64,000 nucleotides of DNA from an uncultured Rhodospirillaceae bacterium (lineage in GTDB: Bacteria; Pseudomonadota; Alphaproteobacteria; JAEUKQ01). Shown in pieces: positions 33,091 to 64,000 of the stretch. Within the stretch, counting starts at the first letter, position 1; every line of letters starts with the position of its first letter. Where the stretch lies: contig CAYPXH010000002.1 in NCBI GenBank assembly GCA_964414755.1, forward strand, positions 38,696 to 102,695, written 5' to 3'. A program made the position numbers and the translations under genes. The notes beneath the pieces were generated by a model, which was not told the origin of the DNA, ran no database searches, and saw only the letters and a list, made by a program, of their open reading frames with translations.

Positions 33091-33324
33091 TCACTTAAGA
33101 TATAAATTTTGACCCACATACCAACCAGTCATCATATCCAGAATGTTTCCTAATATAGCTATTTCTTTCTCGTTATCTTGTTCAGATAAGCTATTCATAT
33201 ACTGGTAAAAATTTTGGATAATTTCTTCTTTAGGGATGCCTTTAGCGTTTAATGCTTTGACGATCATCCTAAGGCGTAGGGTAGGGTTCTTGCTTTTAAG
33301 AGCTTTAGATATTAGATCTTTCAT
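33091..33324 (-). CDS. Small hypothetical protein (77 aa), translationally coupled to upstream 224-aa gene
   Basis: ATGA 4-nt overlap with the 33321..33995 ORF. Charged helical peptide in the AT-rich islet. Confidence 0.3.
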   Translation of the reverse strand: MKDLISKALKSKNPTLRLRMIVKALNAKGIPKEEIIQNFYQYMNSLSEQDNEKEIAILGNILDMMTGWYVGQNLYLK

Positions 33325-33995
33325 GAAAAAAGATTTTCTTTAAGAGGATTCAAAAGAGAAGCCTGTTTTTTTATGTCAACCAGCATTTGATATTTTTTCG
33401 GGAACTGGGTTTGAAAAGTGAGAATACCTTTTTTTGAAAGCTTATCTTCTTCAAAAGCCCAGCTTAAAACGTATTCAGCTATAAACCTATTTCGGTTTAT
33501 ACCGCAAGGGATTAATTGTTGACAATTATACTTCTTGTCTAAGCGCTGTAATAGTTTTTTTGCTAAAACCCGCAATGGCCAGTCGATCCAATTATTATAA
33601 CCCTTGGTCACTAAAATAAGTTTTCGTGAACGAATTATTTTGATTAACGTTACTTCGTTAACATTCGGGTGGGCTACAAAATATTCTAGAAAATTTTCAA
33701 TATTAAAGCTTCTTTGTTTTCTTAGTAAAAAGATTAGATCAGAAATTTTAACAAGTGATTTCTTAATAATCACTTCAATAAAATTCTTAGCTTCAATCAA
33801 GCACCTTCTGGGTTCACTATCAGTGTATATAATGCTTATAGCATAGCAGAAAATTTCTCGAAAGGTTCGTCGTTGATTTTTCCAAATACATTCAATTGTT
33901 GAGGTATCTTTATGATATTCTACAAGATATTTGGAAAATTTAGTACAACCCATTTTGCTTTTAAATTTTTTGTAAGTTACAAGCGTGATCGACAT
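33321..33995 (-). CDS. Hypothetical protein (224 aa), AT-rich islet
   Basis: Long ORF in ~30% GC DNA, same strand as neighbours. No recognisable motifs. Confidence 0.35.
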   Translation of the reverse strand: MSITLVTYKKFKSKMGCTKFSKYLVEYHKDTSTIECIWKNQRRTFREIFCYAISIIYTDSEPRRCLIEAKNFIEVIIKKSLVKISDLIFLLRKQRSFNIENFLEYFVAHPNVNEVTLIKIIRSRKLILVTKGYNNWIDWPLRVLAKKLLQRLDKKYNCQQLIPCGINRNRFIAEYVLSWAFEEDKLSKKGILTFQTQFPKKYQMLVDIKKQASLLNPLKENLFS

Positions 33996-48759: not shown

Positions 48760-49158
48760 TACAATTTTTGATTTGCGCCAAAGGTTAGAAAACTTAATTT
48801 TGTACTTTATATGCTAAAACTAGATTAATATAACACAATAATCAACCCACAGCTTTGATATTAGCTAAAATAATATTAGTAAAGAACAGAGCAAACGACC
48901 AGCGATGGAAAATTTTAAAACTTTTGGCAGATATTGAAATTATTTTGTTGATCGGGATATATGCGCAGCGATTTTATTTACCAATACCAGCCAAACAACC
49001 GTTGAAAAGCTTACTCTTGAAAAATGGTGTGACTACCTTCCTAAATACTGGGTTTTGCCATATCCCAGCCGGCATAACAATTATTTGTTAAAAAAAACAG
49101 TTGTTATGAAGCAATTAATTACAGGGCTTCAAGAACGCGTTCAAGGTATAATTAGCAG

Positions 49159-49557
49159 TTAGCTAATTTCTTGATCAATTTTGTCCATATCAGCATCACT
49201 ATAACCAAAATGATGACCAATTTCATGAATCAATACATGATGAATAATCTGAGCAAGAGAATGAAAAGGTTTTTCTTGCTGCCAATATCTTATAATAGGT
49301 AGGTAATAAAGAAAAATGCGTGGGTGGTCTGACCATAACATGCCGTGATGTTGTTTAGGAATTGGTATGCCATGGTATAAACCCATTAATTGGAAGGGCG
49401 ATGTTAATCCAAGTCCCTGAAGCGTTTCTATGGTTGGGGATTCTTCCACAATAACGGCAACCCCTTTTAGCTGGTCACGAAATAATTCAGGTAAGGTATG
49501 AAGCGATTGCTCGGCCAAAATTTGGAAATCAGCAATATTTGGAATCTGTGGGAACAA
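49159..49557 (-). CDS. Zincin-like metallopeptidase-family protein (DUF1025-type, HExxH)
   Basis: 132 aa with HEIGHHFG zinc-binding motif. Confidence 0.55.
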   Translation of the reverse strand: MFPQIPNIADFQILAEQSLHTLPELFRDQLKGVAVIVEESPTIETLQGLGLTSPFQLMGLYHGIPIPKQHHGMLWSDHPRIFLYYLPIIRYWQQEKPFHSLAQIIHHVLIHEIGHHFGYSDADMDKIDQEIS

Positions 49558-49704
49558 CTGAAACCTTTTTCATTTATTTAAGTGACAATTGATAGAATTT
49601 CTCAAAGACACTTGATTCTTGTTAAGCATTAACCATATTATAGCTGTGAATACTGTTACTTTAACAGAAATAGGGATGATTTTCTAAATTAAAAGGGTGA
49701 TACT

Positions 49705-50424
49705 ATGGCTTTACAACCTAATCTAAGACGAACGACAATCAGTCGCTCTGCCGCGAATGTTGATGAAGGGCTTCGCCAATACATGTTGGGCATATACACT
49801 TATATGGGTTTTGGTGTTTTGCTGACAGGCTTAGTTTCTTATTTTATTGGCACTAATGAACAGTTACTTTTATCACTGTTTAGTTCGCAGGGAATGATGT
49901 ATCTGCTGATGTTCCTACCAGTTGGCATTGCCCTATGGTTGAATTTGGGTATTAACCGCATTAAGGCCTCAACAGCCCAGCTGCTGTTCTGGGTTTATGC
50001 AGCTTTAATTGGTGTGGCTTTGGCGCCAATTTTTGTTCTTTATACCGACACATCGATCGCTAAAGCCTTCTTTATTGCCGCTGCAATGTTTGGTGGGATG
50101 AGTCTTTACGGCTATACAACTCAAAAAGACCTATCAGGAATTGGATCCTTCCTTATTATGGGTGTTTGGGGCTTGTTGGTGGCGATGATCGTTAACATAT
50201 TCTTGCGCTCCAGCGGGTTGGATTTCTTGATTTCCATTGTTGCTGTTCTGGTTTTTACAGGCCTGACAGCTTATGAAACACAGCTGGCTAAAGCTTCTTA
50301 TCAAGAAGATGAAACTGCTGAGATTACCAAAAAGAAATCAATTATCTTCGCTTTACAGCTTTATGTTAACTTCATTAACATGTTTATTCATTTGCTGCGC
50401 TTAATGAACAGCAATCGTAATTAA
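49705..50424 (+). CDS. Bax inhibitor-1/YccA family membrane protein
   Basis: 239 aa, 7 TM. Conserved BI-1 features, including a charged C-terminus. Confidence 0.8.
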   Translation: MALQPNLRRTTISRSAANVDEGLRQYMLGIYTYMGFGVLLTGLVSYFIGTNEQLLLSLFSSQGMMYLLMFLPVGIALWLNLGINRIKASTAQLLFWVYAALIGVALAPIFVLYTDTSIAKAFFIAAAMFGGMSLYGYTTQKDLSGIGSFLIMGVWGLLVAMIVNIFLRSSGLDFLISIVAVLVFTGLTAYETQLAKASYQEDETAEITKKKSIIFALQLYVNFINMFIHLLRLMNSNRN

Positions 50425-50457
50425 ATTCTTTTAGAATTTCATAATTATTTGGCTAAT

Positions 50458-50494
50458 AAACACCCAGCTCTTTCTTTAGTGCTGGGTGTTTTTT
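50458..50494 (+). terminator. Rho-independent terminator after BI-1 gene
   Basis: CACCCAGC-tctttctttagt-GCTGGGTG followed by TTTTTT. Confidence 0.6.
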
Positions 50495-50662
50495 ATGGAC
50501 TTGTTCTTTTTATAGAATGATATAATTAAGCAAATCTAATATAGACAATAATAGTTTTGGTACATTAGGTTAATAAACTAAATCTTTTGTTACTTGTTGA
50601 TATCTAGACTATAACAAACCTAATATTCATAGAATTAAGGGTTATCAAGCAAGGGTTGTTCA

Positions 50663-51718
50663 ATGCTCAAAACAAAAAATAAGTTGCTTTTATTGGCTTT
50701 AAGCCAGTTATTGTTGACACATCAGGGAATTGCCCAGGCCCCTAATGGTGCCCAAGAGAGGCCGCCAATGCCTGTTGAGGCTGTCCAGGTTGAAGTTGGT
50801 CAAGTTGTTCTGTCAATTCCAGCCGTTGGATCTTTAAAATCGGCAGAATCCGTCACGATAAGTCCGGAAATTCCAGGCCGTTTATCAGCCGTTATTGGTA
50901 AAGAAGGACAGGCAGTGCAAGCCGGCGAGGTTCTTGTAACGCTTGATTCATCGATTTATCAGGCCGAATTGGCGCAAGCAGAAGCCAGCATAGCTTTGAG
51001 TAAGGCGAATTACCAACGAGCTGCCGAACTTTTTGAAAAACGCGTTGGAACCCAACAGGCGCGCGATGAGGCAGAAGCCCGTTTCCGAGCTGATGAAGCA
51101 GCTTTAGCCCTAGCTAAAGCACGTTTAACAAAAACAACAATCAACGCCCCCTTTAATGGTATTTTGGGATTACGGCGCGCCAGTATTGGGCAATATTTAT
51201 CCCCTGGCGAAATTGTGTTTAATCTTGAATCCATCAATCCGTTAAAAGTTGATTTTCGGATTCCTGAAATTTATCTAAGCAAAATTCGTGTTGATCAGCA
51301 AATTATCATTAAAATTGATGCGTTGCCAACAAAAGAATACTCAGGAACAGTCTATGCCATTGATCCATTAATTGATCAAAACGGTCGAAGCATTCTTATT
51401 CGCGCAACTTTGGCTAATGACAGTGGTGAGTTACGCCCCGGGTTGTTTGCACGGATAAATCTAGTCTATGAAACTCGCGCAGAAGCTTTGCTAATCCCAG
51501 AACAATCTGTATTTTTTATGGGGCAGCAAAAATTTGTATACCGTATTGTTGATGGAAAAGCATCGTTAACAGCGGTTAAGACTGGCGAGAGAAGCACTGG
51601 AAAAATCGAAATTGTTGAGGGGTTGTCTTCAGGTGATATTGTGATAACAGCCGGCATGATGAAAATATTTGATCATGCTCCAGTTGCACCATTACCACAA
51701 AATCCTCGGCCACAATAA
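50663..51718 (+). CDS. RND efflux periplasmic adaptor (membrane fusion protein)
   Basis: 351 aa with signal sequence. HlyD_D23/biotin-lipoyl-like hairpin with coiled coil. Immediately upstream of the RND pump. Confidence 0.85.
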   Translation: MLKTKNKLLLLALSQLLLTHQGIAQAPNGAQERPPMPVEAVQVEVGQVVLSIPAVGSLKSAESVTISPEIPGRLSAVIGKEGQAVQAGEVLVTLDSSIYQAELAQAEASIALSKANYQRAAELFEKRVGTQQARDEAEARFRADEAALALAKARLTKTTINAPFNGILGLRRASIGQYLSPGEIVFNLESINPLKVDFRIPEIYLSKIRVDQQIIIKIDALPTKEYSGTVYAIDPLIDQNGRSILIRATLANDSGELRPGLFARINLVYETRAEALLIPEQSVFFMGQQKFVYRIVDGKASLTAVKTGERSTGKIEIVEGLSSGDIVITAGMMKIFDHAPVAPLPQNPRPQ

Positions 51719-51748
51719 TTGTGGAAATTTGATATTAAAGAGAACAAT

Positions 51749-54700
51749 ATGTCCTTATCTGATGTTTTTATCCGGCGACCGGTTTTTACCACTGTCTTAA
51801 GTATCTTGGTTATTTTAATTGGCGTTATTAGTTATGATCGACTTGTCATTCGTGAATATCCTAATATTGACCAACCTGTGGTTACGGTATCAACCAGCTA
51901 TTCTGGTGCTAATGCCGAAATTATGGAAAGCCAAGTAACAAAACCCTTAGAAGACGCTTTGTCTGGTATTGAAGGGATTGACGTGATGACATCTAATAGC
52001 CGTGCGGGTGAGAGTAATATCACCTTACGGTTTAATTTAAATAGAAATATTGATCTTGCGGCAAACGATGTGCGCCAAAAAGTTAGCCAGGCGCGTGATT
52101 TCTTGCCAGATGGTGTTGATGAGCCGGCTGTCACAAAAGCCGAAGATGACTCTGAAGCCATCATTTATATTGCTTTTTCAAGTGATCGCCATTCACCGAT
52201 CGAATTGACAGATTATGCAAGACGGGTGGTTCGTGACCGGCTACAGACAGTGTCCGGGGTTTCTGAGGTTCAGGTTTTTGGCGAGCGGCGCCAATCGATG
52301 CGCATTAATTTGCGGCGCGATTCTCTGGCTGCCTATAGCATTACAGTTCAGGAAATTGAAGAAGCCTTGCGCCGGCAGAATATTGAAATACCTGCAGGTG
52401 TTGTTGAAGGACGTTTTCGTGAATTTACTGTACGTGCCGAAACAGATTTGCAAACAGCTATACAATTTGAAAATATTATTATCAGGCGTTCGGAAAACTA
52501 TCTTGTTCGCTTAGGCGATGTTGCAGACGTAAGCATTGCACCCGAAAGTGAGCGAACAATTACCAGATATAAAGGTGATTTTGCCGTTGCTTTGGCTATT
52601 GTTAAGCAATCAACAGCCAATCCCCTAGAAGTATCACAGGGTGTGCGCACAATTTTGCCAGAAATTCAAAAGTCCTTACCAACCGGTATGGCACTTAATA
52701 TAGCTTATGATTCGGCGGTTTTTATTGATCAATCAATTCACGAGGTTTTTATTACAATTTTAGAAGCCATTTTGCTGGTTGTTTTGGTAATTTTTGTTTT
52801 CCTAAGAACCTTGCGCGCAACGATTATTCCGATTGTCACGATACCTGTTTCATTAATTGGTAGTTTTGCTTTAATGTATCTATTTGGTTTTTCCATTAAT
52901 ACCTTAACATTATTAGCCTTCGTACTGGCGATTGGTCTTGTGGTTGATGATGCTATTGTCGTTCTTGAAAATATTTATCGCTATATCGAAAAAGGTATGA
53001 AACCTGTAGAAGCTGCCTTCAAAGGTATGCGGGAAATTTCATTTGCTGTTATTGCTATGACACTAACTTTGGCTGCCGTTTTTGCCCCGATTGGCTTTGC
53101 AACAGGAACAACCGGACGTCTCTTTACCGAATTTGCACTAACCTTAGCCGGTGCTGTGTTAATTTCGGGGTTTGTTGCCCTGACTCTTTCACCCATGATG
53201 TGTGCTTTGTTATTAAAGCATAAGAAAAAACACCATCAACAGGTACCGACTGTCGAAAAACATCTAACAAACACAACCGAGGTTGCTAAAGAAATATCCG
53301 ATTCACCATCAGTAAATAAAGGTTTTTATCCACAATTTTTAAAGGCCGTTCTTAAGGCTCGGCTTTTTGTATTACCATTGATTGTGGTTTTATCATATTT
53401 AGGATACACTAATCTTACAAATTTGCCTCAGGAACTGGCACCCACAGAAGATCGTAGCATTCTGATAGGCATCACAATTGGTCCCGAAGGTTCAACCGCC
53501 GCTTATACGGATAAATACATGCGGCAAATAGAGGCCATTTATCAAAAAGTACCTGAAATGGTAAGTTATTTTATTGTGGTAGGCTTCCCAACAGTTAGCC
53601 GTGGTATTTCATTTGTCGAGTTGCAGCCAATTGATAAGCGCGTGCGCAGTGCAGAAGAAATTGTCGGCGGATTGCGCCCCATTATGTTTGGGGGGGTAGC
53701 AGGGACCATGAATTTTCCTGTAATGCCACCATCGCTGGGTCAGCAATCTACCGGTAAGCCATTATCATTAGTTGTTCAAACCACCGGGTCACACCAGGAA
53801 TTGCAAAGATTAGTTAATGCAATAATGGCAGAAGCACGTTCAAATCCCAGTATTACCGAGCTTGAAAGCGACCTGGAACTAAATAAGCCTGAATTACGTA
53901 TTACTGTAAATCGTGACAAAGCAGCGGATATGGGAATTAGTATTGATACAATCGGCCGTACATTAGAAACCATGATAGGAGGGCGCATCGTAACCCGCTT
54001 TAAATTGGATGGCGAGCAATATAACGTCATTGTACGATTGGAAAGCCAGGAGCGTGCTAATCCCCAAGATTTGTTGAATATTTACATACGTGCTGGTGAT
54101 GGCCAAATGGTTCCCCTGTCTAATATTGTTGAAGTTGTTGAAACATCAGCCGCGCGCGAATTGCGACACTTTAACAAACTGGCCTCGGTTACTTTGACGG
54201 CGAATCTTGCGGAAGGATATACCTTGCCAGAAGCCATTACATATATGGAAGGGTTGGTGCGCAAGCTTGATGTTGATAATAAAACTCAGATCGATTACTC
54301 GGGTTATACACGCGAATTTAAACAATCCAACGAAAGTGTTATTTTTATTTTCGGGTTAGCGTTGCTGTTTATTTATTTGGTATTGGCCGCCCAGTTTGAA
54401 AGTTTTATCGATCCGTTTGTTATTATGTTAACAGTCCCACTGGCCATGACAGGTGCCTTATACACCTTAGGGTGGTCGGGTGGCACATTAAATATTTATA
54501 GCCAGATAGGTCTTGTTACACTTATTGGTCTTATTACCAAGCATGGAATTTTGATTGTCGAATTTGCCAATCAGTTACGCGATACTGGTAAAACAATTAA
54601 AGAAGCAATTATAGAATCAGCTACCCTGCGGTTGCGCCCAATCTTAATGACCACTGCAGCCATGGTTTTAGGGGCATTACCATTAGCTTTAGCAGCAGGT

Positions 54701-54865
54701 CCTGGTGCTGAAAGCAGGCAGCCAATTGGTTGGGTTATCGTGGGCGGTATGACCTTTGGTACATTACTTACTTTGTTTGTTGTGCCAGCTGCGTATATGT
54801 TGTTAGCGCGCCATCATCGCCGTTCTTTAGGAGAGGGTATAAGTCCTTCGTCCCAATCTGCTTAA
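51749..54865 (+). CDS. RND efflux pump inner-membrane permease (AcrB/HAE1-like)
   Basis: ~1038 aa from ATG 51749 (MSLSDVFIRRPVF...), the canonical ACR_tran N-terminus. 12 TM with two large periplasmic loops. Confidence 0.9.
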   Translation: MSLSDVFIRRPVFTTVLSILVILIGVISYDRLVIREYPNIDQPVVTVSTSYSGANAEIMESQVTKPLEDALSGIEGIDVMTSNSRAGESNITLRFNLNRNIDLAANDVRQKVSQARDFLPDGVDEPAVTKAEDDSEAIIYIAFSSDRHSPIELTDYARRVVRDRLQTVSGVSEVQVFGERRQSMRINLRRDSLAAYSITVQEIEEALRRQNIEIPAGVVEGRFREFTVRAETDLQTAIQFENIIIRRSENYLVRLGDVADVSIAPESERTITRYKGDFAVALAIVKQSTANPLEVSQGVRTILPEIQKSLPTGMALNIAYDSAVFIDQSIHEVFITILEAILLVVLVIFVFLRTLRATIIPIVTIPVSLIGSFALMYLFGFSINTLTLLAFVLAIGLVVDDAIVVLENIYRYIEKGMKPVEAAFKGMREISFAVIAMTLTLAAVFAPIGFATGTTGRLFTEFALTLAGAVLISGFVALTLSPMMCALLLKHKKKHHQQVPTVEKHLTNTTEVAKEISDSPSVNKGFYPQFLKAVLKARLFVLPLIVVLSYLGYTNLTNLPQELAPTEDRSILIGITIGPEGSTAAYTDKYMRQIEAIYQKVPEMVSYFIVVGFPTVSRGISFVELQPIDKRVRSAEEIVGGLRPIMFGGVAGTMNFPVMPPSLGQQSTGKPLSLVVQTTGSHQELQRLVNAIMAEARSNPSITELESDLELNKPELRITVNRDKAADMGISIDTIGRTLETMIGGRIVTRFKLDGEQYNVIVRLESQERANPQDLLNIYIRAGDGQMVPLSNIVEVVETSAARELRHFNKLASVTLTANLAEGYTLPEAITYMEGLVRKLDVDNKTQIDYSGYTREFKQSNESVIFIFGLALLFIYLVLAAQFESFIDPFVIMLTVPLAMTGALYTLGWSGGTLNIYSQIGLVTLIGLITKHGILIVEFANQLRDTGKTIKEAIIESATLRLRPILMTTAAMVLGALPLALAAGPGAESRQPIGWVIVGGMTFGTLLTLFVVPAAYMLLARHHRRSLGEGISPSSQSA

Positions 54866-55404
54866 AAAAACAAGTTCTGTAATTTTAATAAAGTATCTTT
54901 GGATAGCGGGTAACCGCCTGCTATCCACCATATATAAAGGGCAAAAAACAAAAAAGACCAAGTAAAAATGTATTCAACTGGTGATTTATACGACCAGTGG
55001 AAAGGAAAACGATAGCGTTGCTGGTGTGGCCATAATAGGGGAATGCCAGACGGATTCATCATGTCACCTAACAAATGTGACAGATAGCCAATCAGAAAAG
55101 GAATAATAACAAAATGTTGCCATCCAACCAACTGGGGGTGTTGTAGCAACCACGTAAGACCGGCTAGACATATGAAAATAGCTATTAAACTATGAGTAAA
55201 GCCCCGGTGGCCAACTAAAAAACCAAGTGGGTAGGCAATAAAGGGAAAACGTTTGCCAATACTGCTTTTTGGTGTATCTAAGTCTGGAGCTAGTCCAGAA
55301 ACTGTTGCAACACCAAGATCAATTGGTGTTAGTGGAATTTTGAACAGTCCTGCGGTGATAATCCAGCAGCCAGCCGCCCAACGCAAATGATTGGGAGCGA
55401 TCAT
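54862..55404 (-). CDS. Membrane-bound metal-dependent hydrolase (YdjM/DUF457-like)
   Basis: 180-aa polytopic protein with conserved His residues (GHRGFTHS). Confidence 0.5.
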   Translation of the reverse strand: MIAPNHLRWAAGCWIITAGLFKIPLTPIDLGVATVSGLAPDLDTPKSSIGKRFPFIAYPLGFLVGHRGFTHSLIAIFICLAGLTWLLQHPQLVGWQHFVIIPFLIGYLSHLLGDMMNPSGIPLLWPHQQRYRFPFHWSYKSPVEYIFTWSFLFFALYIWWIAGGYPLSKDTLLKLQNLFF

Positions 55405-55472
55405 CTGGAAGCACCAAACATATACGGTTTAATCATATCCATCCACGCCACCACGCACCAAGACATTAAAAA

Positions 55473-55925
55473 CTATTTTTTCCAAAACAACCAGCTGCTA
55501 GAACCTTTTTTCGAGAAACTAAGCCACTGCTTGTTGATTGTTGCAGCCATCAAATCGAAATTATCCCAGGTATCTTTAACTTCATAAAGGCTTGCCAAAT
55601 TTTGCCCCAGAACTTTTTCATAATCATCTAAATAAAGATTATTTTCATAGTAAAATTTTGTAAAATCGTTGCCCATAGAGGTTAAATGATTATCTGAAAA
55701 TACACCATCACAATATTCTAGAAAAAATGCTCCAGGGGTTATTTGGCGCGATAAAAGCTTTTCAAGACCCTGGTTGCAATCTTTGGAAAATGGGGCGCTG
55801 GCAATATTATTTTGAATAGCCCAGACAATAAAAAAAGCAATATGCGTAGCAGCGCATTTTTGGGGCACATATTCCGGGAAACCATCACCACCTGCATGCC
55901 AATCGGCTTTATCGTATATGTTCAT
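55473..55925 (-). CDS. Hypothetical cytoplasmic protein (150 aa)
   Basis: ORF abutting the tRNA-Gly 3' end. No recognisable family. Confidence 0.35.
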   Translation of the reverse strand: MNIYDKADWHAGGDGFPEYVPQKCAATHIAFFIVWAIQNNIASAPFSKDCNQGLEKLLSRQITPGAFFLEYCDGVFSDNHLTSMGNDFTKFYYENNLYLDDYEKVLGQNLASLYEVKDTWDNFDLMAATINKQWLSFSKKGSSSWLFWKK

Positions 55926-55986
55926 TTCTATCTCTGCTAGAAAACAAGCAATTATTCGCGGTGGTTTTTTTACATTTTAAGGGTTT

Positions 55987-56060
55987 TGGAGCGGGTGAGG
56001 GGAATCGAACCCCCGTCGTAAGCTTGGGAAGCTTCTGCTCTACCATTGAGCTACACCCGC
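55987..56060 (-). tRNA. tRNA-Gly (anticodon CCC)
   Basis: Minus-strand sequence GCGGGTGTAGCTCAATGGTAGAGCAGAAGCTTCCCAAGCTTACGACGGGGGTTCGATTCCCCTCACCCGCTCCA folds as a cloverleaf. Anticodon loop TTCCCAA. Encoded CCA. Confidence 0.9.
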
Positions 56061-56168
56061 ACTCTGACGAGTTTTATATTATAGAACCAATTAAAACACA
56101 AGAATTATACTAAGGATATAGTAACAACAAATAACAATATGAAAATGTCAGTATATAGCCCATTGAAG

Positions 56169-56801
56169 TTATTTAGGGCGGTATTTTGTATGATAACCCG
56201 GATTATCAGTTGGCCTTAATTGGTTTGGATACTCAATATCTGTCTTAATATCATAAGAAATTTGTTTTAATTTTTTGAAAACTTCATAAGGATCGGGAAT
56301 ATGTGATATAATGAAAGGCTTGCTTGTAAATGTTTTGTATTTATCAAAAGAAAAATTGCCAGCAGTTAAAATCATAATGCTGCCGCTGTTGCCGCCTGTT
56401 ATTATGTCTGCTAATCCAACATTGACCTGGATATTGGTAATTTTATCAAAATCTATCGCATCAAAATCACGGCCGATAATCCCTCGCTGCAAAACAACTC
56501 TTTTATCGGTAATAGCATATCTAATATATTTAAAATTTAGTAATGTTATAAGAAAGGGAATTAGGAATCTTAGGGCGATGAGAATACAAAATCCAATAAT
56601 TATATAAAGCCCAAAACCAATTTTCACCTCTAGAAATTCAGCAATTTCAAAAAACCCCCAAAAAATTACAAATATTAATATTGCTGTGCCTAAGCCAAAC
56701 GAAAATTCAAAGATTTTGGCTATAAAAAATGGCATAAATTTAGGTCCGGATTGCCAGAAAATCTGCTCGTTTTTGTCGAAAATTTGCTTAAATTCTTGCA
56801 A
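56169..56801 (-). CDS. Membrane protein with bacterial PH domain (bPH_2 / YdbS-like)
   Basis: 210 aa. Two TM helices followed by YAITDKRVVLQRGIIGRDFDAIDFDKITNIQV (bPH_2 signature). Lies between the two tRNA genes. Confidence 0.5.
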   Translation of the reverse strand: MQEFKQIFDKNEQIFWQSGPKFMPFFIAKIFEFSFGLGTAILIFVIFWGFFEIAEFLEVKIGFGLYIIIGFCILIALRFLIPFLITLLNFKYIRYAITDKRVVLQRGIIGRDFDAIDFDKITNIQVNVGLADIITGGNSGSIMILTAGNFSFDKYKTFTSKPFIISHIPDPYEVFKKLKQISYDIKTDIEYPNQLRPTDNPGYHTKYRPK

Positions 56802-56852
56802 GACCAGCCCATTATTATATTTATTATTAATAAGCTATTACTTAACCAAGGA

Positions 56853-56937
56853 TGGTGCCCCTTGCCGGACTCGAACCAGCACGTCTCTCAACACCTGATT
56901 TTGAGTCAGGCGCGTCTACCAATTCCGCCAAAGGGGC
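56853..56937 (-). tRNA. tRNA-Leu (anticodon CAA)
   Basis: Minus-strand GCCCCTTTGGCGGAATTGGTAGACGCGCCTGACTCAAAATCAGGTGTTGAGAGACGTGCTGGTTCGAGTCCGGCAAGGGGCACCA. Long variable arm. Anticodon loop CTCAAAA. Encoded CCA. Confidence 0.9.
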
Positions 56938-57012
56938 TTATGGGTACCAGTTGTTTACCCTTAAACATAAAATCCGTCAACAAAAATACTTTAAGTAAAG
57001 CTATTAGTAATT

Positions 57013-57328
57013 GGGGTCGACACAGAATTCGGAAAAAATAGTACGCTAAGATTAATTATCAGCTTATTATTCCTTCTCTTAGCGTGCTTTATTTTCGTTT
57101 CCTGAGGCGATTCCAAAAAGCCAAAATAATCTTGGTTAACAATACCACGAACCATCTGCATTCAATACCCCGTGCTAATCCACAGATTGGAATCGATAAA
57201 ATAGGGGTCGTTTGACGAAAGGGAAATAAAGCACCTTAAGACGATGGGAAGGGGCGCAAAGGCCTAAACTTCCAACCTATTGCTAAAACCTTAGCGTACT
57301 ATTTTTTCCGAATTCTGCGTCGATTCCT
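57013..57328. mobile_element. Tn3-family-derived miniature inverted-repeat element (TIME-like), copy A, 316 bp
   Basis: 38-bp terminal inverted repeats. Left IR 57013-57050 GGGGTCGACACAGAATTCGGAAAAAATAGTACGCTAAG. Right IR 57291-57328 reads (reverse complement) GGAATCGACGCAGAATTCGGAAAAAATAGTACGCTAAG. Outer GGGG and inner TAAG match the Tn3-family IR signature. No ORF inside. Confidence 0.6.
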
Positions 57329-57931
57329 ATATGAATCTTTTGGATCAGAATTTTCATTTCATCTAGGACCGATAATTGAGTTTTTTTACCACCTCAGGCA
57401 AGCTACTATCTTCCCATTTCGTCATTTTTCTTCTGAGCGCTATTTCTTTCTTAAAAGGGGTTAGATTATATTTTGACTCTGGTTATTGGAATAACACTAT
57501 TCCTCAAAATACTTAAAACGAAGTTAAATAATTATTATTTTACTACATATTCCATATTACATAATAAAACGCGGGTTTCAATCTGACTTAGATTTTTTTT
57601 ATGCCCATCAATAGCGGAGAAGTTTGGCTTAGCACTGAAATCATCGAACTCAAAAAAATATAATTCGATTGTCCTTGGTAGGACTTTAAAGCAACCCAAG
57701 CATTGAAGTTCGTATTTTTGTGGAGTCTTAGAGCATATTTGGCCATAGGCAGTAATGTTAATATGGTGAAACATTCAAGATTGAGACTGGAAAATTAAAC
57801 AACATGTTGTATCCCTTAAAATTGCAGTACGTAACTGCACTTGAAAACAAGCAGATCAGAGAAAAGATCAAGGTTCTTTGTAAGCATCGTTCGATGCTAT
57901 AAACTGGGCTATTATTACAATCATTATAGCT

Positions 57932-58885
57932 TTGTATAGTGGTGGTATAGGGTTAATAATTACCGATAAACCTTTATTTCTTGTATTTGGAACGATCTCG
58001 CTCAGTTTATCAATGCTTCTTTCTTGGTATTTAAGTCATGATTGCGCTCATCTTTTAGTTTTCAAAGCCAAAAAATACAACGATTTTCTTGGAGAATTAC
58101 TGTCGTGGATTAACGGTCTCGCATATTTCAGATTTCACGAATATCGCAAAGATCATTTAAGGCATCATTTAGAACAAGTTGATCTTGCTGGAGTAAATGT
58201 TTCTAAAGTTTTGTCTAAGCTACCATACCCATGTGGCAAAATCACAATATTTCTAGAGCAATGTTATATCCCAATAATTTTTTTCATAATAAAAATTCAC
58301 AACATCATTGGTGTTATTCAGAGCAAAAATATAAGTTACATTATTCGAGTGATATTGGTAGGGTTAGTTTCTCTGTTATTTCTTTTTTGGTTAGCAATAA
58401 CTCATTGGTGGTCACCATTTCTATATTTTTTTGCTGTAATTATACGAATTCATTCTGTTAGGTTCGTAGACGCTTTCCAACATAGTTATGTGCAAATTGA
58501 TCCCTCCAATAGAAATAAACCTCAAGACAAATTGTACGAACAGAAAAATACTTTTTCATACCCTGTTGCGCGTCAGTTTAAATTCTTAAATCTTATTATA
58601 TTAAATTTTGGATTTCACAATGCCCATCATGCTGTACCCGGCTGTCCTTGGTATAATTTACCTAAAATCAATGAGATTATTCTCAACTATAAAATAACTG
58701 AGAAGGGTTCTTTAAAAATTAATGGAGAACCTCATTATGTAAGGTTCTCAGAATTAATTTATTGTTATCATAAGAAGCTAAAAGAGAGGCTTACTTCTAC
58801 AAACGAAGGAAGACCTTATAATGATGAACTTAGATTTTCAATGAAAGACTTTACGGGTGCTTTCACAGATAATCTTCTAGGATAG
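57932..58885 (+). CDS. Membrane fatty-acid desaturase/hydroxylase superfamily protein (di-iron, three His boxes)
   Basis: 317 aa, ~4 TM. His boxes HDCAH, HEYRKDHLRHH, HNAHH. Low-GC cargo gene of the composite element. Confidence 0.7.
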   Translation: MYSGGIGLIITDKPLFLVFGTISLSLSMLLSWYLSHDCAHLLVFKAKKYNDFLGELLSWINGLAYFRFHEYRKDHLRHHLEQVDLAGVNVSKVLSKLPYPCGKITIFLEQCYIPIIFFIIKIHNIIGVIQSKNISYIIRVILVGLVSLLFLFWLAITHWWSPFLYFFAVIIRIHSVRFVDAFQHSYVQIDPSNRNKPQDKLYEQKNTFSYPVARQFKFLNLIILNFGFHNAHHAVPGCPWYNLPKINEIILNYKITEKGSLKINGEPHYVRFSELIYCYHKKLKERLTSTNEGRPYNDELRFSMKDFTGAFTDNLLG

Positions 58886-58916
58886 GACAATAACAGTAAT
58901 TCAAAGGCTTTACATT

Positions 58917-59894
58917 ATGCTAAATAAAAAAATTAAAGGTGACACAGTCCCAGTTATCGATATTTCCTCACTTTTTAGTAATAAAAAGAGTGAAACTGAT
59001 AACTTAGCAAGGTCTATTGCGGCGGCCTGTAATTCAATTGGATTTTTCTATATTATTAATCATGGAGTTTCTCATACTATCTTTGATAACGTGTTTTCAG
59101 AATGCAGGGCGCTTTTTAATATGTCTGCTCAAGAAAAGGAATTAATAAATATCCACAAATCAAAGCACATGCGGGGATATTTTAGTTTTGGTGCAGATAA
59201 ATCTGATGGTATTCATGGGGATATTAAAGAGGGTTTTGATATGGCCAGTGACATTCCTTTAGATGATCCATATGTGAAAGCAGGACTAGCATTTTATGGG
59301 CCAAATGTTTGGCCGGCAAATTTGCCAAATTTCAAAAGAGTTACAACAGAGTATTATACAAGTATGTTACAAGTAGGTCGATTACTTTTAAGATCTTTTG
59401 CTCGGGGATTAGGAGTAGAAGATAATTTCTTTGACGACAAATTCCGTAAACCAATGGCCCAAATGAGACTACTACGCTATCCCCAAACCCCTAATCCAAA
59501 TAGTAAACAAATTGGTGCAGGAGAACACACAGATTTCGGTTGGATAACTATGATTGCTCAAGATGAGATAGGTGGCCTCGAAGTATTAAATAAACAGGGA
59601 GAGTGGATTGACATTCCTCCCGTTCCATCATCTTTAGTAGTCAATATCGGTGATCTTATGGCACGGTGGACAAATGATCAATACACTGCTACGTTTCATC
59701 GTGTCATCAACAAAAGCAGTCGGGATCGTTATTCTATCGCTTTTTTCATGGATCCTGATTATCATGCAAACGTTGAGTGTCTACCTAGTTGCAAATCGAA
59801 AAATCGTCCTGCTAAGTATGATCCAATTATTGCTGGAGACTATATGAATAAGAGATTCTATGAGACAACTACCTTCCGGGATTATCAGAAATAA
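58917..59894 (+). CDS. 2-oxoglutarate/Fe(II)-dependent oxygenase (IPNS/ACC-oxidase-like: DIOX_N + 2OG-FeII_Oxy)
   Basis: 325 aa. Facial triad H-x-D...H (HTDFG ... FHRV) and R-x-S (RYSIAF). Confidence 0.7.
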   Translation: MLNKKIKGDTVPVIDISSLFSNKKSETDNLARSIAAACNSIGFFYIINHGVSHTIFDNVFSECRALFNMSAQEKELINIHKSKHMRGYFSFGADKSDGIHGDIKEGFDMASDIPLDDPYVKAGLAFYGPNVWPANLPNFKRVTTEYYTSMLQVGRLLLRSFARGLGVEDNFFDDKFRKPMAQMRLLRYPQTPNPNSKQIGAGEHTDFGWITMIAQDEIGGLEVLNKQGEWIDIPPVPSSLVVNIGDLMARWTNDQYTATFHRVINKSSRDRYSIAFFMDPDYHANVECLPSCKSKNRPAKYDPIIAGDYMNKRFYETTTFRDYQK

Positions 59895-59967
59895 AACACC
59901 AATTAAAATTCTTGTTAAATCAATGTATTAATAAATCAACAGGCTAATCTTAGAGGATGCTTCTATT

Positions 59968-60417
59968 ATGCCAGAAAAAAGTAGTTTCTTGTATTATCTT
60001 TCAGCAGTTATTGCAATTATTGGTACCGTTGGGTACCACTTTTTCGTCAAAAAGATACCTTCTGGCATTCATCCTCTTGTTTCGGTTGTTGGTATTTATG
60101 TCGCAGTATTAGTCATTTGTATTCCGATTTTATTGTTAATCCCTATCCAGGGAGGACTTGCCATGCATATTAAACAATTGAATTGGGTTCAGGTGGCAGT
60201 TGCGCTAGCCATCATCTTGATGGAGCTTGGCTTTTTATTAATGTATCGGTATGGGTGGGATTTAAGTGTAGGGAATTTGGTGACCGGAGTTGCTATCAAT
60301 ATTATGTTAATGGCTATTGGGTTGCTTATTCTTCGAGAACAGTTAAGTTTTATTAATATAGTTGGTATTATCTTATCGATTGCAGGCGTAGCGATGATCA
60401 GTTACCGAAGCTCATAA
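59968..60417 (+). CDS. Small 4-TM DMT-superfamily (EamA-like half-transporter) membrane protein
   Basis: 149 aa, four hydrophobic helices. Last cargo gene before TIME copy B. Confidence 0.45.
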   Translation: MPEKSSFLYYLSAVIAIIGTVGYHFFVKKIPSGIHPLVSVVGIYVAVLVICIPILLLIPIQGGLAMHIKQLNWVQVAVALAIILMELGFLLMYRYGWDLSVGNLVTGVAINIMLMAIGLLILREQLSFINIVGIILSIAGVAMISYRSS

Positions 60418-60431
60418 AATAAACTTAGGAT

Positions 60432-60667
60432 GGGGTCGACGCAGAATTAGAAAAAAATAGTACGCTAAGGTTTTGCAATAGGTTTGAAGTTTAGGCCTTT
60501 GCCCCTCCTTCCCATCGTCTTAAGGTGCTTTATTTTCCCTTTCGTCAAAGGACACCTTAGAAGGGTTTTCTAACTCTTATAAAATTCCCAATATACTTCG
60601 CCGGGTCGCAGCAGCTCTAAGCACAAAACATTAGCCTAGTATTTTTTCCTAATTCTGCGTCGACCCC
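60432..60667. mobile_element. Tn3-family-derived miniature inverted-repeat element (TIME-like), copy B, 236 bp, inverted relative to copy A
   Basis: Left IR 60432-60469 GGGGTCGACGCAGAATTAGAAAAAAATAGTACGCTAAG. Right IR ends at 60667 (...GCGTCGACCCC). Internal 60470-60548 is the reverse complement of copy A's 57204-57290. Sits between the convergent DMT and hppD genes. Confidence 0.6.
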
Positions 60668-60670
60668 TAA

Positions 60671-61750
60671 TTAAGCTTTTAAAACCCCACGACGAATCTG
60701 GTCTTGTTCCATGGATTCAAACAATGCCCGGAAATTTCCTTCACCAAACCCCTCATCGCCCTTCCGCTGGATAATCTCAAAGAAAATAGGGCCAATAACA
60801 GTTTCCGTAAAAATTTGTAAAAGCAATCCACCAGCCGGTGATCCATCAATCAGCAAAGCATTTTTCTGCAAGCGGGCAACATCTTCACCGTGATTTGGTA
60901 ATCTTTTTTGTAACATTTCATAATATGTTGCGGGAGGAGCAGCCAAAAACTTAATTTTGCGCTGACGCAGGCTTTCAACAGTTTTATAGATATTGTCGGT
61001 GGCAAGGGCGATGTGTTGGATTCCTTCGCCTTTATAGAGTTTTAAATATTCCTCAATCTGACTTTTATCATCGGCACTTTCATTGATGGGAATGCGAATT
61101 TTACCACATGGACTGGTCATTGCTTTGGATTTAAGGCCAGTTAACTTCCCTTCAATATCAAAATAGCGAATTTCTCGGAAATTGAACAGTCGTTGATAAA
61201 AATCAGCCCATTTAGCCATATTTCCACGGTATACATTATGGGTTAAGTGGTCAATATAAGCTAATCCCATATCTGGTATGTTAGAAGGAGTTGTTTTGGT
61301 AAAAGACGATTCATAAACATTACCTTTTTTACCATAGCGATCTACAAGGTAAAGATGACTACCGCCAATGCCTTCGATGGCGGGAACATTATCTAAAAGC
61401 GTGGTGCCAGTGGCTATGGGTTTGGCGCCCAATTTTATGCTACGCTGATATGCTTTGTTGGCGTCTTTAACGCGAAATCCGATTGAGGCGCAGCATGGAC
61501 CATGCATGTTAGCAAATTTTTTTGCATGGCTTGATGGATCCTGATTTAAAATAAAATAAATATCGCCCTGTTTATACAATATTATTTTTTTGGTTTTGTG
61601 CAAACCAACACGTGAAAAACCCATCTGCTCGAAAAGGGGCTCTAGTAGTTTACTATCATTTGGTTCTGCGTATTCAACGAATTCAAAACCATCTGTTCCA
61701 GCCGGATTAATAGGGTCAAGATCATAACCGGTGGTTGGTGTTTGGTGCAT
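60671..61750 (-). CDS. hppD: 4-hydroxyphenylpyruvate dioxygenase
   Basis: 360 aa from ATG 61750 (MHQTPTTGYDLDPINPAGTDGFEFVEYA), N-terminal to the upstream-extended ORF. VOC-fold tandem domains. C-terminal FGEGNFRALFESME motif. Confidence 0.85.
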   Translation of the reverse strand: MHQTPTTGYDLDPINPAGTDGFEFVEYAEPNDSKLLEPLFEQMGFSRVGLHKTKKIILYKQGDIYFILNQDPSSHAKKFANMHGPCCASIGFRVKDANKAYQRSIKLGAKPIATGTTLLDNVPAIEGIGGSHLYLVDRYGKKGNVYESSFTKTTPSNIPDMGLAYIDHLTHNVYRGNMAKWADFYQRLFNFREIRYFDIEGKLTGLKSKAMTSPCGKIRIPINESADDKSQIEEYLKLYKGEGIQHIALATDNIYKTVESLRQRKIKFLAAPPATYYEMLQKRLPNHGEDVARLQKNALLIDGSPAGGLLLQIFTETVIGPIFFEIIQRKGDEGFGEGNFRALFESMEQDQIRRGVLKA

Positions 61751-62129
61751 GGTATCCTCAAATAATTTTTCTAGATGCTGATAAACAGGGTTAATTTTAC
61801 GAGAAACTGGATATAGATGTAAAAAGCACAGAAATTCTATAATGGCCGCAGGGTAAAGACAACTATAAAACACAAAATTACTTTATATTATTTTATAAAA
61901 ACTTTATTTTTTGTGACATTTTAGCATCAAGTCGCTAAAAAGCTTGGAAAAACTAATAAAGTCCTTTGACAAATGACTAAGGAATTCGTATATCGGAATC
62001 GCAACTTGCTTTTTTAGGCTATAGTTATAGTAAAGCGAGTTTTTAAGAGTTTGTTAATAAGTGGTTGGTTATAATTCTCGAGTGGGTAAATCAATTATAG
62101 TAGGCTTTAACTAAGAAAGAGGAATAAAC

Positions 62130-62945
62130 ATGAATCAAACTAAATTATTTTTGGCAATGGCTGCTGCTGGGCTTTTAGCCGGTTGTGCAACCAATATAGA
62201 CCAAATGAAAACTGTAAAGCCAAAAGGCGGAAATGAATTCACAGCATCTCTGACAGAAGAATATCGGCAGCTAACAGCCTTAGAGGCCGAGTATGAGCGT
62301 GACTGGATTGACGCAAACACCTGGGCACGTAAAGGCCTTGCTGCATCACGCGGTCAAGCAGTGCAGCCAGAGGAATTAAAAAATTGGCATCTGCCAGCGG
62401 ATAAGGTCAATGAATTAACCCAGGCACGTGCTCGTTTGGTAAGTGCTCTTAATGGTGGCGCAGGTCAGCGTATGCCAAAAGTTGCTGCCCGTGCTCAAGC
62501 CCGTTTCGATTGTTGGGTTGAACAACAAGAAGAGAATCATCAGCCAAAAGACATAGCTGCTTGCCGCGATGGTTTTTATCAAGCCATGGAAGCTTTGGGT
62601 GGACGCTATGTACAACCAGCAGGAAATGTGATTTACTTTCAGTTTAACAGTGCAGATTTAACAGAAGCTGCTCAGAATATCGTTGTAGCATTGGCCAGCG
62701 AAATTAAGCAGAAGAATGCTAAAAACGTAACTGTTGTTGGTCATACGGACTTAAGCGGTCCTGCCTCATACAACATGACCTTATCGCTACGTCGCGCTGA
62801 TGCCGTGCGTAGTGCATTGGTTAATGCCGGTGTGGCACCAGAACAGATTACAACATCTGGTCGTGGTGAAGAACAGCCAGCTGTTCCAACGGAAGACGGT
62901 GTTGCTGATCGTCGCAACCGTCGTGCCGAAGTCTTGATGCAGTAA
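62130..62945 (+). CDS. OmpA-family peptidoglycan-associated lipoprotein
   Basis: 271 aa. Lipobox LLAGC. C-terminal OmpA_C domain (NVTVVGHTDLSGPASYNMTLSLRRADAV). Confidence 0.75.
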   Translation: MNQTKLFLAMAAAGLLAGCATNIDQMKTVKPKGGNEFTASLTEEYRQLTALEAEYERDWIDANTWARKGLAASRGQAVQPEELKNWHLPADKVNELTQARARLVSALNGGAGQRMPKVAARAQARFDCWVEQQEENHQPKDIAACRDGFYQAMEALGGRYVQPAGNVIYFQFNSADLTEAAQNIVVALASEIKQKNAKNVTVVGHTDLSGPASYNMTLSLRRADAVRSALVNAGVAPEQITTSGRGEEQPAVPTEDGVADRRNRRAEVLMQ

Positions 62946-62972
62946 TTTGCCTTATAAGCAAAGAAACAGCAA

Positions 62973-63001
62973 GGGGTGCCACAAATCGGCACCCCTTTTT
63001 T
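62973..63001 (+). terminator. Rho-independent terminator after OmpA-family gene
   Basis: GGGGTGCC-acaaatc-GGCACCCC followed by TTTTTTTAT. Confidence 0.7.
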
Positions 63002-63030
63002 ATATAGTTTTGATCTTAATGTGAATTTCT

Positions 63031-63423
63031 ATGTATACCAAAACGACACGCGCAATTAAGATTACGGTCAAATCCATTTTTTTGGACGAGCGTTCCAGCC
63101 CAGAACAACATAAATTCTTCTGGGCGTATCAGGTGACAATTGAAAATACAGGACAAGAAACTGTAACGTTAAAGAACCGGTATTGGAAGATTATTGATGC
63201 CCATGGGCATCAGGTTGAAGTTGAAGGGGAGGGCGTTATTGGCCAACAACCTACCATAAATCCGGGAATGGTTTTTGAATACACAAGTGGTACCCCTTTA
63301 TCTACACCATCAGGATTTATGGTTGGACGATACGAAATGCATAATTCTTTGGGGGAATCTTTTTCTGTCGATATACCTGCTTTTTCACTTGATAGCCAAC
63401 ATCAACCTAAATCCATTCACTAA
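63031..63423 (+). CDS. apaG: ApaG (DUF525) protein
   Basis: 130 aa. Matches the ApaG beta-sandwich domain across its length (ITVKSIFLDERSSPEQHKFFWAYQVTIENTG, GVIGQQPTINPG). Confidence 0.8.
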   Translation: MYTKTTRAIKITVKSIFLDERSSPEQHKFFWAYQVTIENTGQETVTLKNRYWKIIDAHGHQVEVEGEGVIGQQPTINPGMVFEYTSGTPLSTPSGFMVGRYEMHNSLGESFSVDIPAFSLDSQHQPKSIH

Positions 63424-64000
63424 TGTGATCATTAAGTTTTCTACAACAGGTTTGTATATTTATGAATTTTATTATAAAAAGCTTATAAATAGACATCATC
63501 AATAATCGAGAAACTAAACAGGCTTAAATTATAGTATTTATTAAAAATACATAGAAATATTTGTAATAAATTTGGGAATTTGGTTTAGGGGCTGTTAAGA
63601 ATTAGTCAAAAGGCGTGTGCGAAAAATTAATAGCATGCCAAAGAGTAGTTTTTTGTATTCCTAAAAGAATGTGCATGGCGGTTCAATAATCCAGGCCCCC
63701 AATCGCTACTCCGTCAACTAAAGCCTTTGGTCTAAACTTCATCAACTCTAGTTATTTGATCCAGCCCTAAAAATTATTTAGGGTAGTGGGCCTAAAAAAA
63801 CCTGATCTGGTGGTTGCTACTTGTTAAAATACCGGACACAACTCGCTATAACTGAGACAATAAAGAAATGACACATCTTTTGCTGATTAGATTATAGGCA
63901 AACCCGCTGCCCGTTACCAATTCGTATCGCGTTCTCCATCACCAAGGTTTAATAGAACGTGTTATTTATGTTTTTTATTAAGGTAAAAGCCCTAAAAGAT

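Follow-up and report, generated by a model that had tools for sequence, protein, structure and literature searches.

How did three genes, bracketed by short inverted repeats, come to lie between a tRNA-Leu gene and hppD (4-hydroxyphenylpyruvate dioxygenase) in an uncultured alphaproteobacterium? The question is raised by a stretch of 64,000 nucleotides from an uncultured Rhodospirillaceae bacterium (assembly GCA_964414755.1, contig CAYPXH010000002.1, positions 38,696 to 102,695 of the forward strand), which was analysed as a whole and is called the window in the following; all positions refer to it unless another contig is named. The block between the two host genes comprises 3,655 bp (57013-60667) and is very likely a TIME-COMP, a non-autonomous composite transposon in which miniature ends derived from Tn21/Tn1721-like transposons bracket a conserved three-gene operon for a membrane di-iron oxygenase, a 2-oxoglutarate-dependent Fe(II) oxygenase, and a small membrane protein. 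TIMEs are transposon-derived miniature elements with Tn3-related ends and without a transposase (PMC4133298, PMC13367494). The composites built from them, the TIME-COMPs, are diagnosed by direct repeats of 5 or 6 bp at the outermost repeats together with an ancestral replicon that does not contain the insertion (PMC13367494). At the present locus two TIMEs are found around a core without transposition genes, 5-bp direct repeats are found at the outermost repeats, and the ancestral site without the insertion is found in relatives.

The insertion and its empty site

The 38-bp repeat GGGG...TAAG (IR-A, for inverted repeat A) was searched for as a pattern in the whole window, allowing up to three mismatches and with shuffled sequence as control. 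Exactly four sites were obtained, at 57013-57050(+), 57290-57327(-), 60432-60469(+), and 60630-60667(-), with zero sites expected from the shuffled controls. If the internal repeats of the Tn21 type are included, the unit contains seven repeat ends in total. Directly outside the outermost repeats the pentamer TAATT is present on both sides, at 57008-57012 and at 60668-60672. The flanks on the inner side of the two end elements, TATAT and AGGAT, do not match, and of the nine ways to pair a '+' with a '-' end, the outermost is the only one in which the flanking 5 bp are identical. A random match of two pentamers taken from this sequence has a probability of about 0.0015-0.0018. An extension of the right-end inverted repeat (I2 of the repeat finder) by 11 nucleotides into the flanks was also considered and was rejected, as 6 of 11 matches are at chance level.

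The relatives that carry the locus were reached through hppD homologues. Three contigs of a sister lineage (L026, L152, and L154), whose flanks are 93-97% identical to those of the window at the nucleotide level, have hppD, one pentamer, and then tRNA-Leu without any cargo, and in all three the alignments of the left and right flanks overlap by exactly 5 bp. The pentamer of the empty site is TAGTT in the orientation of the window, which is one single-nucleotide polymorphism away from TAATT, and IR-A-like sequence is absent from the empty-site contigs. In L026, blastn aligned the right flank (60668-63720) to 3027-1 with 95.1% identity and the left flank (56440-57012) to 3593-3023 with 93.9% identity. 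Its junction reads ...GTTTTAAAAGCTTAACTACCAATAAC..., the window minus the unit would read ...GTTTTAAAAGCTTAATTACTAATAGC..., the hppD products are 97% identical, and the gene order in L026 is OmpA, hppD, tRNA-Leu. More of the surroundings is covered by L152, a segment of 17 kb taken from a 258-kb contig of this sister lineage: 49022-57012 corresponds to L152 17080-9079 (96.9%) and 60668-64000 to L152 9083-5754 (93.1%), the gene order being collinear on both sides of the site. Two more distant relatives, both with an hppD product of 79% identity, have been found in addition. In L024 a tRNA-Leu(CAA) gene is located 113 bp downstream of hppD and there is no cargo, and in L027 tRNA-Leu is adjacent to hppD, although the contig ends inside the tRNA. 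Because hppD adjoins tRNA-Leu in both of these distant relatives, the empty state is the ancestral one. The whole block together with one pentamer entered the spacer between hppD and tRNA-Leu in a single event via the outermost repeats, and this insertion postdates the split from the sister lineage, which corresponds to about 3-7% nucleotide divergence.

A first-pass annotation, which had been made from the letters of the window only, had described the terminal inverted repeats, the two TAATT copies, and the differing inner flanks, had derived from them a single transposition of the whole unit of about 3.65 kb, and had pointed to an empty site in relatives as the place to look. All of this is borne out by the outermost-only TAATT pair and by the empty site with its 5-bp overlap. 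Only the end of the left element had to be moved, by one base, from 57328 to 57327.

The filled arrangement is shared by eight retrieved contigs from several samples with 98.4-100% identity to the window, and the 2-oxoglutarate (2OG) oxygenase protein of the cargo was found in identical form on 14 metagenome contigs.

Relationship of the repeats to Tn3-family transposons

IR-A agrees with the published left inverted repeat of Tn1721 (GGGGAGCCCGCAGAATTCGGAAAAAATCGTACGCTAAG; PMC7864471) in 32 of 38 positions. An even closer repeat is present on the IncP plasmid pALTS33, where tnpA ends in a canonical Tn21-type repeat and is followed 79 bp on by a second repeat, GGGGTCGCCGCAGAATTCGGAAAAAATCGTACGCTAAG, with 36 of 38 positions identical to IR-A. 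Compared with PLSDB by blastn, the left element matched thousands of plasmids, at sites where annotated Tn3-family transposases end and beside merR. In public metagenome contigs the inner 20-mer of IR-A is found in at least 120 stretches, with GGGG exactly 38 nucleotides from TAAG in nearly all of them, and three metagenome repeats are identical to the IR-A consensus over all 38 positions. At 20 or more of the loci with the inner 20-mer, a full-length Tn3-family tnpA ends beside the repeat (65-84% amino acid identity to pALTS33 TnpA), and in L048, L050, and L111 paired repeats surround transposons of 9-10 kb, which are flanked by the AT-rich 5-bp duplications TATAA, TTCAA, and AAGTA. Judged by these sequence comparisons, the repeats are bona fide Tn3-family ends of the Tn21/Tn1721 subgroup, in agreement with the Tn3-like character first ascribed to them. 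A REP-type intergenic repeat was considered as well and was ruled out, given that the sequence occurs nowhere else in the 64 kb and matches transposon ends that abut tnpA genes.

Some of the related loci deserve mention in their own right. The repeat pair of pALTS33 (L023 4001-4158, MN366361), a Tn21-type repeat at the tnpA stop and a Tn1721-type repeat 79 bp later in the same orientation, recalls the mixed repeat types within the end elements of the window. L072 (JGI contig Ga0114963_10108384) contains at 14-283 a candidate TIME of 270 bp with perfect 38-bp repeats, GGGGGAAACGCACAAAACGGAAAAAATAGTACGCTAAG, at both ends, whose flanking pentamers do not match. In L116 (1987-4441) and L086 (199-900), repeats identical to the IR-A consensus in 38 of 38 positions stand beside genes for a heavy-metal P-type ATPase and signal peptidase II. 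This suggests that the closest relatives of the unit's ends belong to metal-resistance transposons.

Mosaic structure of the ends

Measured between the pairs of IR-A, the two ends of the unit are 315 and 236 bp long. They have a core in common, which comprises 57204-57327 on the left and the reverse complement of 60432-60556 on the right (124 and 125 bp, 115 of 126 alignment positions identical), and the remainders of the two ends beyond this core are unrelated. The first-pass annotation had regarded the ends as two copies of one miniature element in inverse orientation. This holds for the inverted core but not for the ends as wholes, which are mosaics and not simple copies. The two core parts, T2 on the left and T3 on the right, have a Tn21-type repeat (IR-B, GGGGTCGTTTGACGAAAGGGAAATAAAGCACCTTAAG) at one end and IR-A at the other end, with about 48 bp in between. 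IR-B and the adjoining 35-50 bp inside T2 and T3 are about 76% identical to the region of the tnpA 3' end in elements of the Tn21 subgroup. For T2 the match extends over 88 bp (76%) of the tnpA-proximal end of Tn21-subgroup elements, and for T3 over 73 bp (75.7%) under annotated 3' ends of Tn3-family transposases. Because the core is homologous to the tnpA 3' end beyond the repeat, it represents a transposon that was cut down to its two ends and a scrap of tnpA.

The left end contains a further miniature unit, T1, whose inward repeat IR-B' (57078-57114) agrees with the Tn21-type repeat at the tnpA end of pALTS33 in 33 of 38 positions by hand count. The 89-bp spacer between T1 and T2 (57115-57203) has no convincing homologue in the right end. 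Its last 17 bp, beside T2, lie inside the plasmid match, and with 11 of 17 identical positions they are at about chance level. The right end terminates in a solo IR-A, which is degenerate in its TAAG-proximal part and whose sequence recurs in L004 and L006. The IR-A of T1 and this solo IR-A are the outermost repeats that were used in the insertion. With 102, 124, and 125 bp, T1, T2, and T3 all have the size of TIMEs, which are elements of 50-500 bp with Tn3-related repeats and no transposase gene. T2 and T3 are 91% identical and thus differ by 9%, whereas the filled strains differ from each other by at most 1.6%. Therefore, the composite was assembled before it was inserted. The features of the unit and of its immediate surroundings are collected in Table 1.

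Table 1. Features of the inserted unit and its two neighbouring genes (window positions)
Feature	Position	Strand	Basis
tRNA-Leu(CAA), left neighbour; 5' end 75 bp from the unit	56853-56937	-	ARAGORN, Rfam tRNA
Left 5-bp target-site duplication TAATT	57008-57012		sequence; in the empty-site contigs, matched by the same 5 bp as the right copy
T1, miniature unit of 102 bp: IR-A 57013-57050 GGGGTCGACACAGAATTCGGAAAAAATAGTACGCTAAG, 27 bp, inward Tn21-type IR-B' 57078-57114(-)	57013-57114	+	pattern search, repeat finder (I9/I6), sequence
Spacer between T1 and T2, 89 bp, origin unknown	57115-57203		alignment of the ends, plasmid search
T2, miniature unit of 124 bp: IR-B 57204-57240, tnpA 3' remnant of about 35 bp, IR-A 57290-57327(-) with GGAATCGA... 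at the tip	57204-57327	+	pattern search, alignment
AT-rich cargo leader; 79-residue open reading frame 57535-57774(-) without family match	57328-57804		open reading frame and family searches
Membrane His-box oxygenase of the FA_desaturase family, 360 residues in other strains	57805-58885	+	Pfam 7e-28; comparison with L001/L002; orthologues in L150, L151, L155
2OG-Fe(II) oxygenase, IPNS/EFE-like family, 325 residues	58917-59894	+	Pfam DIOX_N and 2OG-FeII_Oxy
Small membrane protein, 149 residues, weak EamA/DMT match	59968-60417	+	Pfam 7e-6, below cut-off; orthologues of the third gene in L150, L151, L155 (52-64% amino acid identity)
T3, miniature unit of 125 bp, inverted counterpart of T2: IR-A 60432-60469 facing the cargo, IR-B 60520-60556	60432-60556	-	repeat finder (I1), alignment
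Spacer of the right end, 73 bp, origin unknown	60557-60629		alignments
Outer right repeat, solo degenerate IR-A GGGGTCGACGCAGAATTAGGAAAAAATACTAGGCTAAT	60630-60667	-	pattern search, 3 mismatches to the degenerate search pattern
Right 5-bp target-site duplication TAATT; 2-nucleotide overlap with the hppD stop codon	60668-60672		sequence and empty-site alignments
hppD (4-hydroxyphenylpyruvate dioxygenase), right neighbour, intact after the insertion	60671-61750	-	Pfam, homologues

Among the filled contigs, some differ from the window at the repeats. The outer left repeat in L002 (119-156), L003 (1735-1772), and L005 (119-156) is the variant of the repeat at 60432 (G10, A18, A20), unlike the repeat at 57013-57050 of the window, which could be the result of gene conversion between repeat copies or an artefact of metagenome assembly at repeats. 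L007 ends at window position 60430, two bases short of T3, and L008 spans 57225-60534, so that both its ends are located inside the inverted cores of T2 and T3. Breaking off at repeats is usual for assemblers. It may explain why units of this kind are under-reported in metagenome-assembled genomes.

The cargo operon

The same three genes are found in the same order, but without Tn3-type repeats, in L150 (57% GC), in L151 (67% GC), and in Pseudomonas japonica (L155). Compared to the window, their products are 43-51% (desaturase-family protein), 58-70% (oxygenase), and 52-64% (small membrane protein) identical. The three genes form an operon conserved in Pseudomonas and other Proteobacteria. As the gene order is conserved elsewhere, the cargo is a conserved operon that was captured whole but without its regulator. 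In the leader region (57328-57930) neither a plasmid match nor a remnant of a LysR gene was found. The operon of Pseudomonas japonica (L155 2638-6531, JBHUNC010000052.1) has a divergent LysR gene upstream and comes from a cultured Pseudomonas, and it would offer a tractable system for finding the function of the operon.

The family assignments made at first for the desaturase and for the 2OG oxygenase were reproduced with Pfam, whereas a DMT transporter is supported only by the weak EamA match below the cut-off. The best match of the oxygenase in the PDB is a chain deposited as 'ethylene/succinate-forming enzyme' (5e-63). For the desaturase-family protein, the NCBIfam matches (to DesA, the arginine hydroxylase GntB, and CrtW) are all below the threshold, and no relative with a solved structure was found for it. 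Based on family membership, the probable role of the cargo is to oxidise and handle a small molecule or a lipid, with the help of a membrane partner.

In the window, a deletion of one nucleotide near 57899 (57895-57902, GCTATTAAAC to GCTATAAAC) cuts off the first approximately 33 codons of the desaturase gene. The same deletion is present in L003, and it is shared by L004, which is 100% identical to the window in this region. L001 (310-345 compared) and L002 have an intact frame of 360 codons that aligns end to end with the orthologues. L008 retains the deleted base, with a substitution nearby, and its desaturase has been called at 317 residues. The cargo may be decaying in some strains, or the deletion may be a sequencing error.

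With respect to base composition, the segment had been described as lower in GC than its surroundings. The interior of the unit has indeed 34.4% GC compared to 40.5% for the window, but the fall is modest: the desaturase gene lies 2.7 standard deviations under the average of the other genes, and for the genes of the oxygenase and of the small membrane protein the difference is about one standard deviation. The closest homologous operons have a high GC content and are at most 70% identical. No donor was identified among them or in PLSDB, where the cargo has no DNA match and its protein matches on plasmids have at most 42% identity.

How the unit could have moved

The proposed course follows the general scheme of Tn3-family transposition via TnpA, cointegrate, and resolution, as summarised in PMC13367494. 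A Tn3-family TnpA would have been supplied in trans by an autonomous relative, either in the donor or in the recipient cell, and would have bound to the outer repeats. Replicative (paste-and-copy) transposition from a donor replicon would then have led to a cointegrate. Because the unit contains neither tnpR nor a recognisable res site, the cointegrate would have been resolved by homologous recombination of the host, or by a resolvase acting elsewhere or on an unrecognised site. No res-like site was recognised in the unit, for which no dedicated search was made, and within the 124-bp core there seems to be hardly any space for one. The composite itself would have been put together in the donor, and the miniature copies used for it would by then have differed from each other. 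The mobility of the unit is a property that we infer from this past event, by way of the empty site.

Several observations weigh against a TIME-COMP that was mobilised in trans. The genome coverage examined for a transposase is the 64-kb window, and a tblastn search with pALTS33 TnpA found no Tn3-type transposase there, so that the cognate enzyme, for which the first-pass annotation had suggested to look, did not turn up. Because of this absence of tnpA, the unit counts as non-autonomous and is not classified among the unit transposons of the Tn3 family. A look for other copies of the repeat and of the unit had been suggested as well. They were found for the repeat type, in the metagenome stretches described above, but not for the particular miniature element: the miniature core has no other copies in the window, the JGI metagenomes, IMG/VR, and PLSDB, and an exact 22-mer of the T2/T3 core gave zero matches in the JGI metagenomes and IMG/VR. 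In the GTDB representative genomes, a set to which the source species evidently does not belong, a 21-nucleotide IR-A pattern has 14 loci, all of which are chance matches with 20-25 of 38 positions over the full repeat. A family with many copies that is mobile at present is therefore not shown. In addition, a donor replicon with the same unit was not found in the plasmid and contig searches, and given its degenerate right repeat the unit may no longer be mobilisable. Finally, none of the individual miniature units has matching 5-bp flanks of its own, although the lack of such duplications is consistent with the units having arrived as passengers in one composite.

Three other histories have been considered. 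The one that survives best, although we regard it as highly unlikely, is that the block entered as an autonomous Tn3-family transposon with tnpA and tnpR, which were later lost by an internal deletion, so that it would never have been mobilised in trans. The short remnants of the tnpA 3' end beside IR-B in T2 and T3 would fit such a history, and deletion derivatives of the repeat family do exist in metagenomes, for example L063 with 1.8 kb and a tnpA fragment. However, both ends of the unit hold complete miniature units with inward repeats (57327 and 60432), meaning two TIMEs around a core and not a transposon with a hole, the tnpA remnants comprise only about 35 bp and are duplicated in inverted orientation at both ends, and tnpA is absent from all eight filled contigs.

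It is extremely improbable that the three genes are ancestral at this locus and were removed from the sister lineages by a deletion that ran exactly from one TAATT to the other. In principle, short direct repeats can give rise to deletions, and the outgroups represent two depths only, but L024 and L027 (hppD 79%) also have hppD adjoining tRNA-Leu, the block starts and stops exactly at the GGGG tips of Tn3-type repeats, and the GC content of the cargo is below that of the host. Just as hard to imagine are independent insertions of miniature elements flanking genes that were gained otherwise, by a tRNA-targeted island or by homologous recombination. The site does adjoin a tRNA gene, which is a common target of islands, but an integrase is absent, the 3' end of the tRNA is not repeated, and the unit lies on the 5' side of the tRNA gene. 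Moreover, the duplication belongs to the outermost pair and to none of the individual units, and what is missing from the empty site is exactly the sequence from one outer repeat tip to the other. Because of the absent integrase, the absent tRNA-derived repeat, and the position on the 5' side, a tRNA-targeted integrative island was ruled out as a candidate of its own.

Host locus

The landing place of the unit, 75 bp from the 5' end of tRNA-Leu and on the stop codon of hppD, had been recognised correctly: ARAGORN predicts the tRNA at 56853-56937(-), and the right TAATT shares two nucleotides with the stop codon of hppD (60671-60673). In the protein collection that was searched, the hppD product has 400 residues and a GTG start. 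Because the window encodes MutS, IF-2, NusA, PNPase, MurJ, and Lnt, it represents the chromosome. An Rfam scan of the window detected two tRNAs and nothing else. A scan for promoter and terminator consensus sequences gave counts equal to the shuffled expectation, and therefore no statement on expression is possible.

Genes of low GC content are also found outside the unit. A membrane protein with a bacterial PH domain is encoded beside tRNA-Leu (56169-56801, 31.8% GC), and an unannotated open reading frame of 224 residues is located at 33321-33995 (31.0% GC). Because the empty-site lineage has the PH-domain gene too, this gene is outside the insertion.

Comparison with known systems

Published TIME-COMPs are almost all plasmid-borne, and most of them were sought for the resistance genes they carry. 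Because TIME-COMPs do not contain a transposase gene, they are missed by standard annotation. Composites of TIMEs had at first been taken as rarely documented, which has to be tempered for a kind of element that was demonstrated experimentally in 2014 and was surveyed in 2026, but the metabolic, non-resistance cargo does stand out. The unusual points of the unit are its chromosomal, environmental, and non-resistance setting; otherwise it is a TIME-COMP of the known kind. It provides a base-precise natural before/after pair for a TIME-COMP insertion, with the filled and empty alleles coming from sister lineages that are 93-97% identical. This case shows that ordinary metabolic operons, too, are moved in this way in the environment, and that pairs of GGGG...TAAG repeats with a 5-bp duplication are a signature that can be used to find such events in metagenome-assembled genomes. 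The three-gene operon of unknown function is thereby marked as a horizontally traded module worth characterising. It could even be speculated that plasmids and antibiotic resistance are not the main field of TIME-COMPs, and that they are a general, overlooked route by which self-contained metabolic operons become fixed in environmental chromosomes. In this case the three products, a GntB-like membrane di-iron hydroxylase, an EFE/IPNS-like 2OG oxygenase, and a small DMT-type membrane protein, would work together to oxidise and export, the operon would serve to produce or alter a small molecule of unknown identity, and it could still be mobilised by resident transposases of the Tn21/Tn1721 type. 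We consider this wide proposal unlikely.

The ends of the unit resemble the unit transposons of the Tn21/Tn501/Tn1721 subgroup in their 38-bp GGGG...TAAG repeats, in the Tn21-type inner repeat, in the tnpA 3' end running into the repeat, and in the 5-bp duplications, but the unit differs from these transposons by having no tnpA, tnpR, and res.

Further counterparts are the TIME-COMPs of Enterobacteriaceae that are bounded by TIME244, IS101, MITESen1, or IMU (Gomi & Yano 2026, PMC13367494; Poirel et al. 2009 as cited there). They follow the same logic and have the same diagnostic, range from about 1 kb to more than 10 kb, and commonly have inverted TIMEs, as in the inverted ends of the present unit (PMC13367494). 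However, they carry antibiotic-resistance genes and reside mostly on plasmid replicons, whereas the window unit contains a conserved oxidative operon and is part of a chromosome. In the Enterobacteriaceae survey of 2026, 97% of the TIME-bearing replicons were plasmids and the cargo consisted of resistance genes (PMC13367494). TIME244 has a putative res-like site, whereas none was recognised in the window unit, though a dedicated search was not part of the analysis.

Also among the closest known elements are TIME-COMP1 and TIME-COMP2 of Pseudomonas sp. ZM1 (Szuplewska et al. 2014, PMC4133298), which were captured experimentally, are 2.5 and 3.9 kb long, have 5-bp AT-rich direct repeats, are mobilised in trans, and contain their TIMEs in either orientation (PMC4133298). 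Like the unit described here, they consist of two Tn3-derived miniature elements with 38-bp repeats around a core without transposition genes, and they share with it the 5-bp AT-rich duplications, a size of 2.5-3.9 kb, the free orientation of the miniature elements, and a GC content below that of the host replicon. In contrast, they were found on a small plasmid, their TIMEs are near-identical with 262 bp, and their transposition was observed experimentally. The window unit has mosaic ends (units of 102, 124, and 125 bp and a solo repeat) with a core of 91% identity, it resides in the chromosome of an uncultured alphaproteobacterium, and its mobility would follow from the empty site only.

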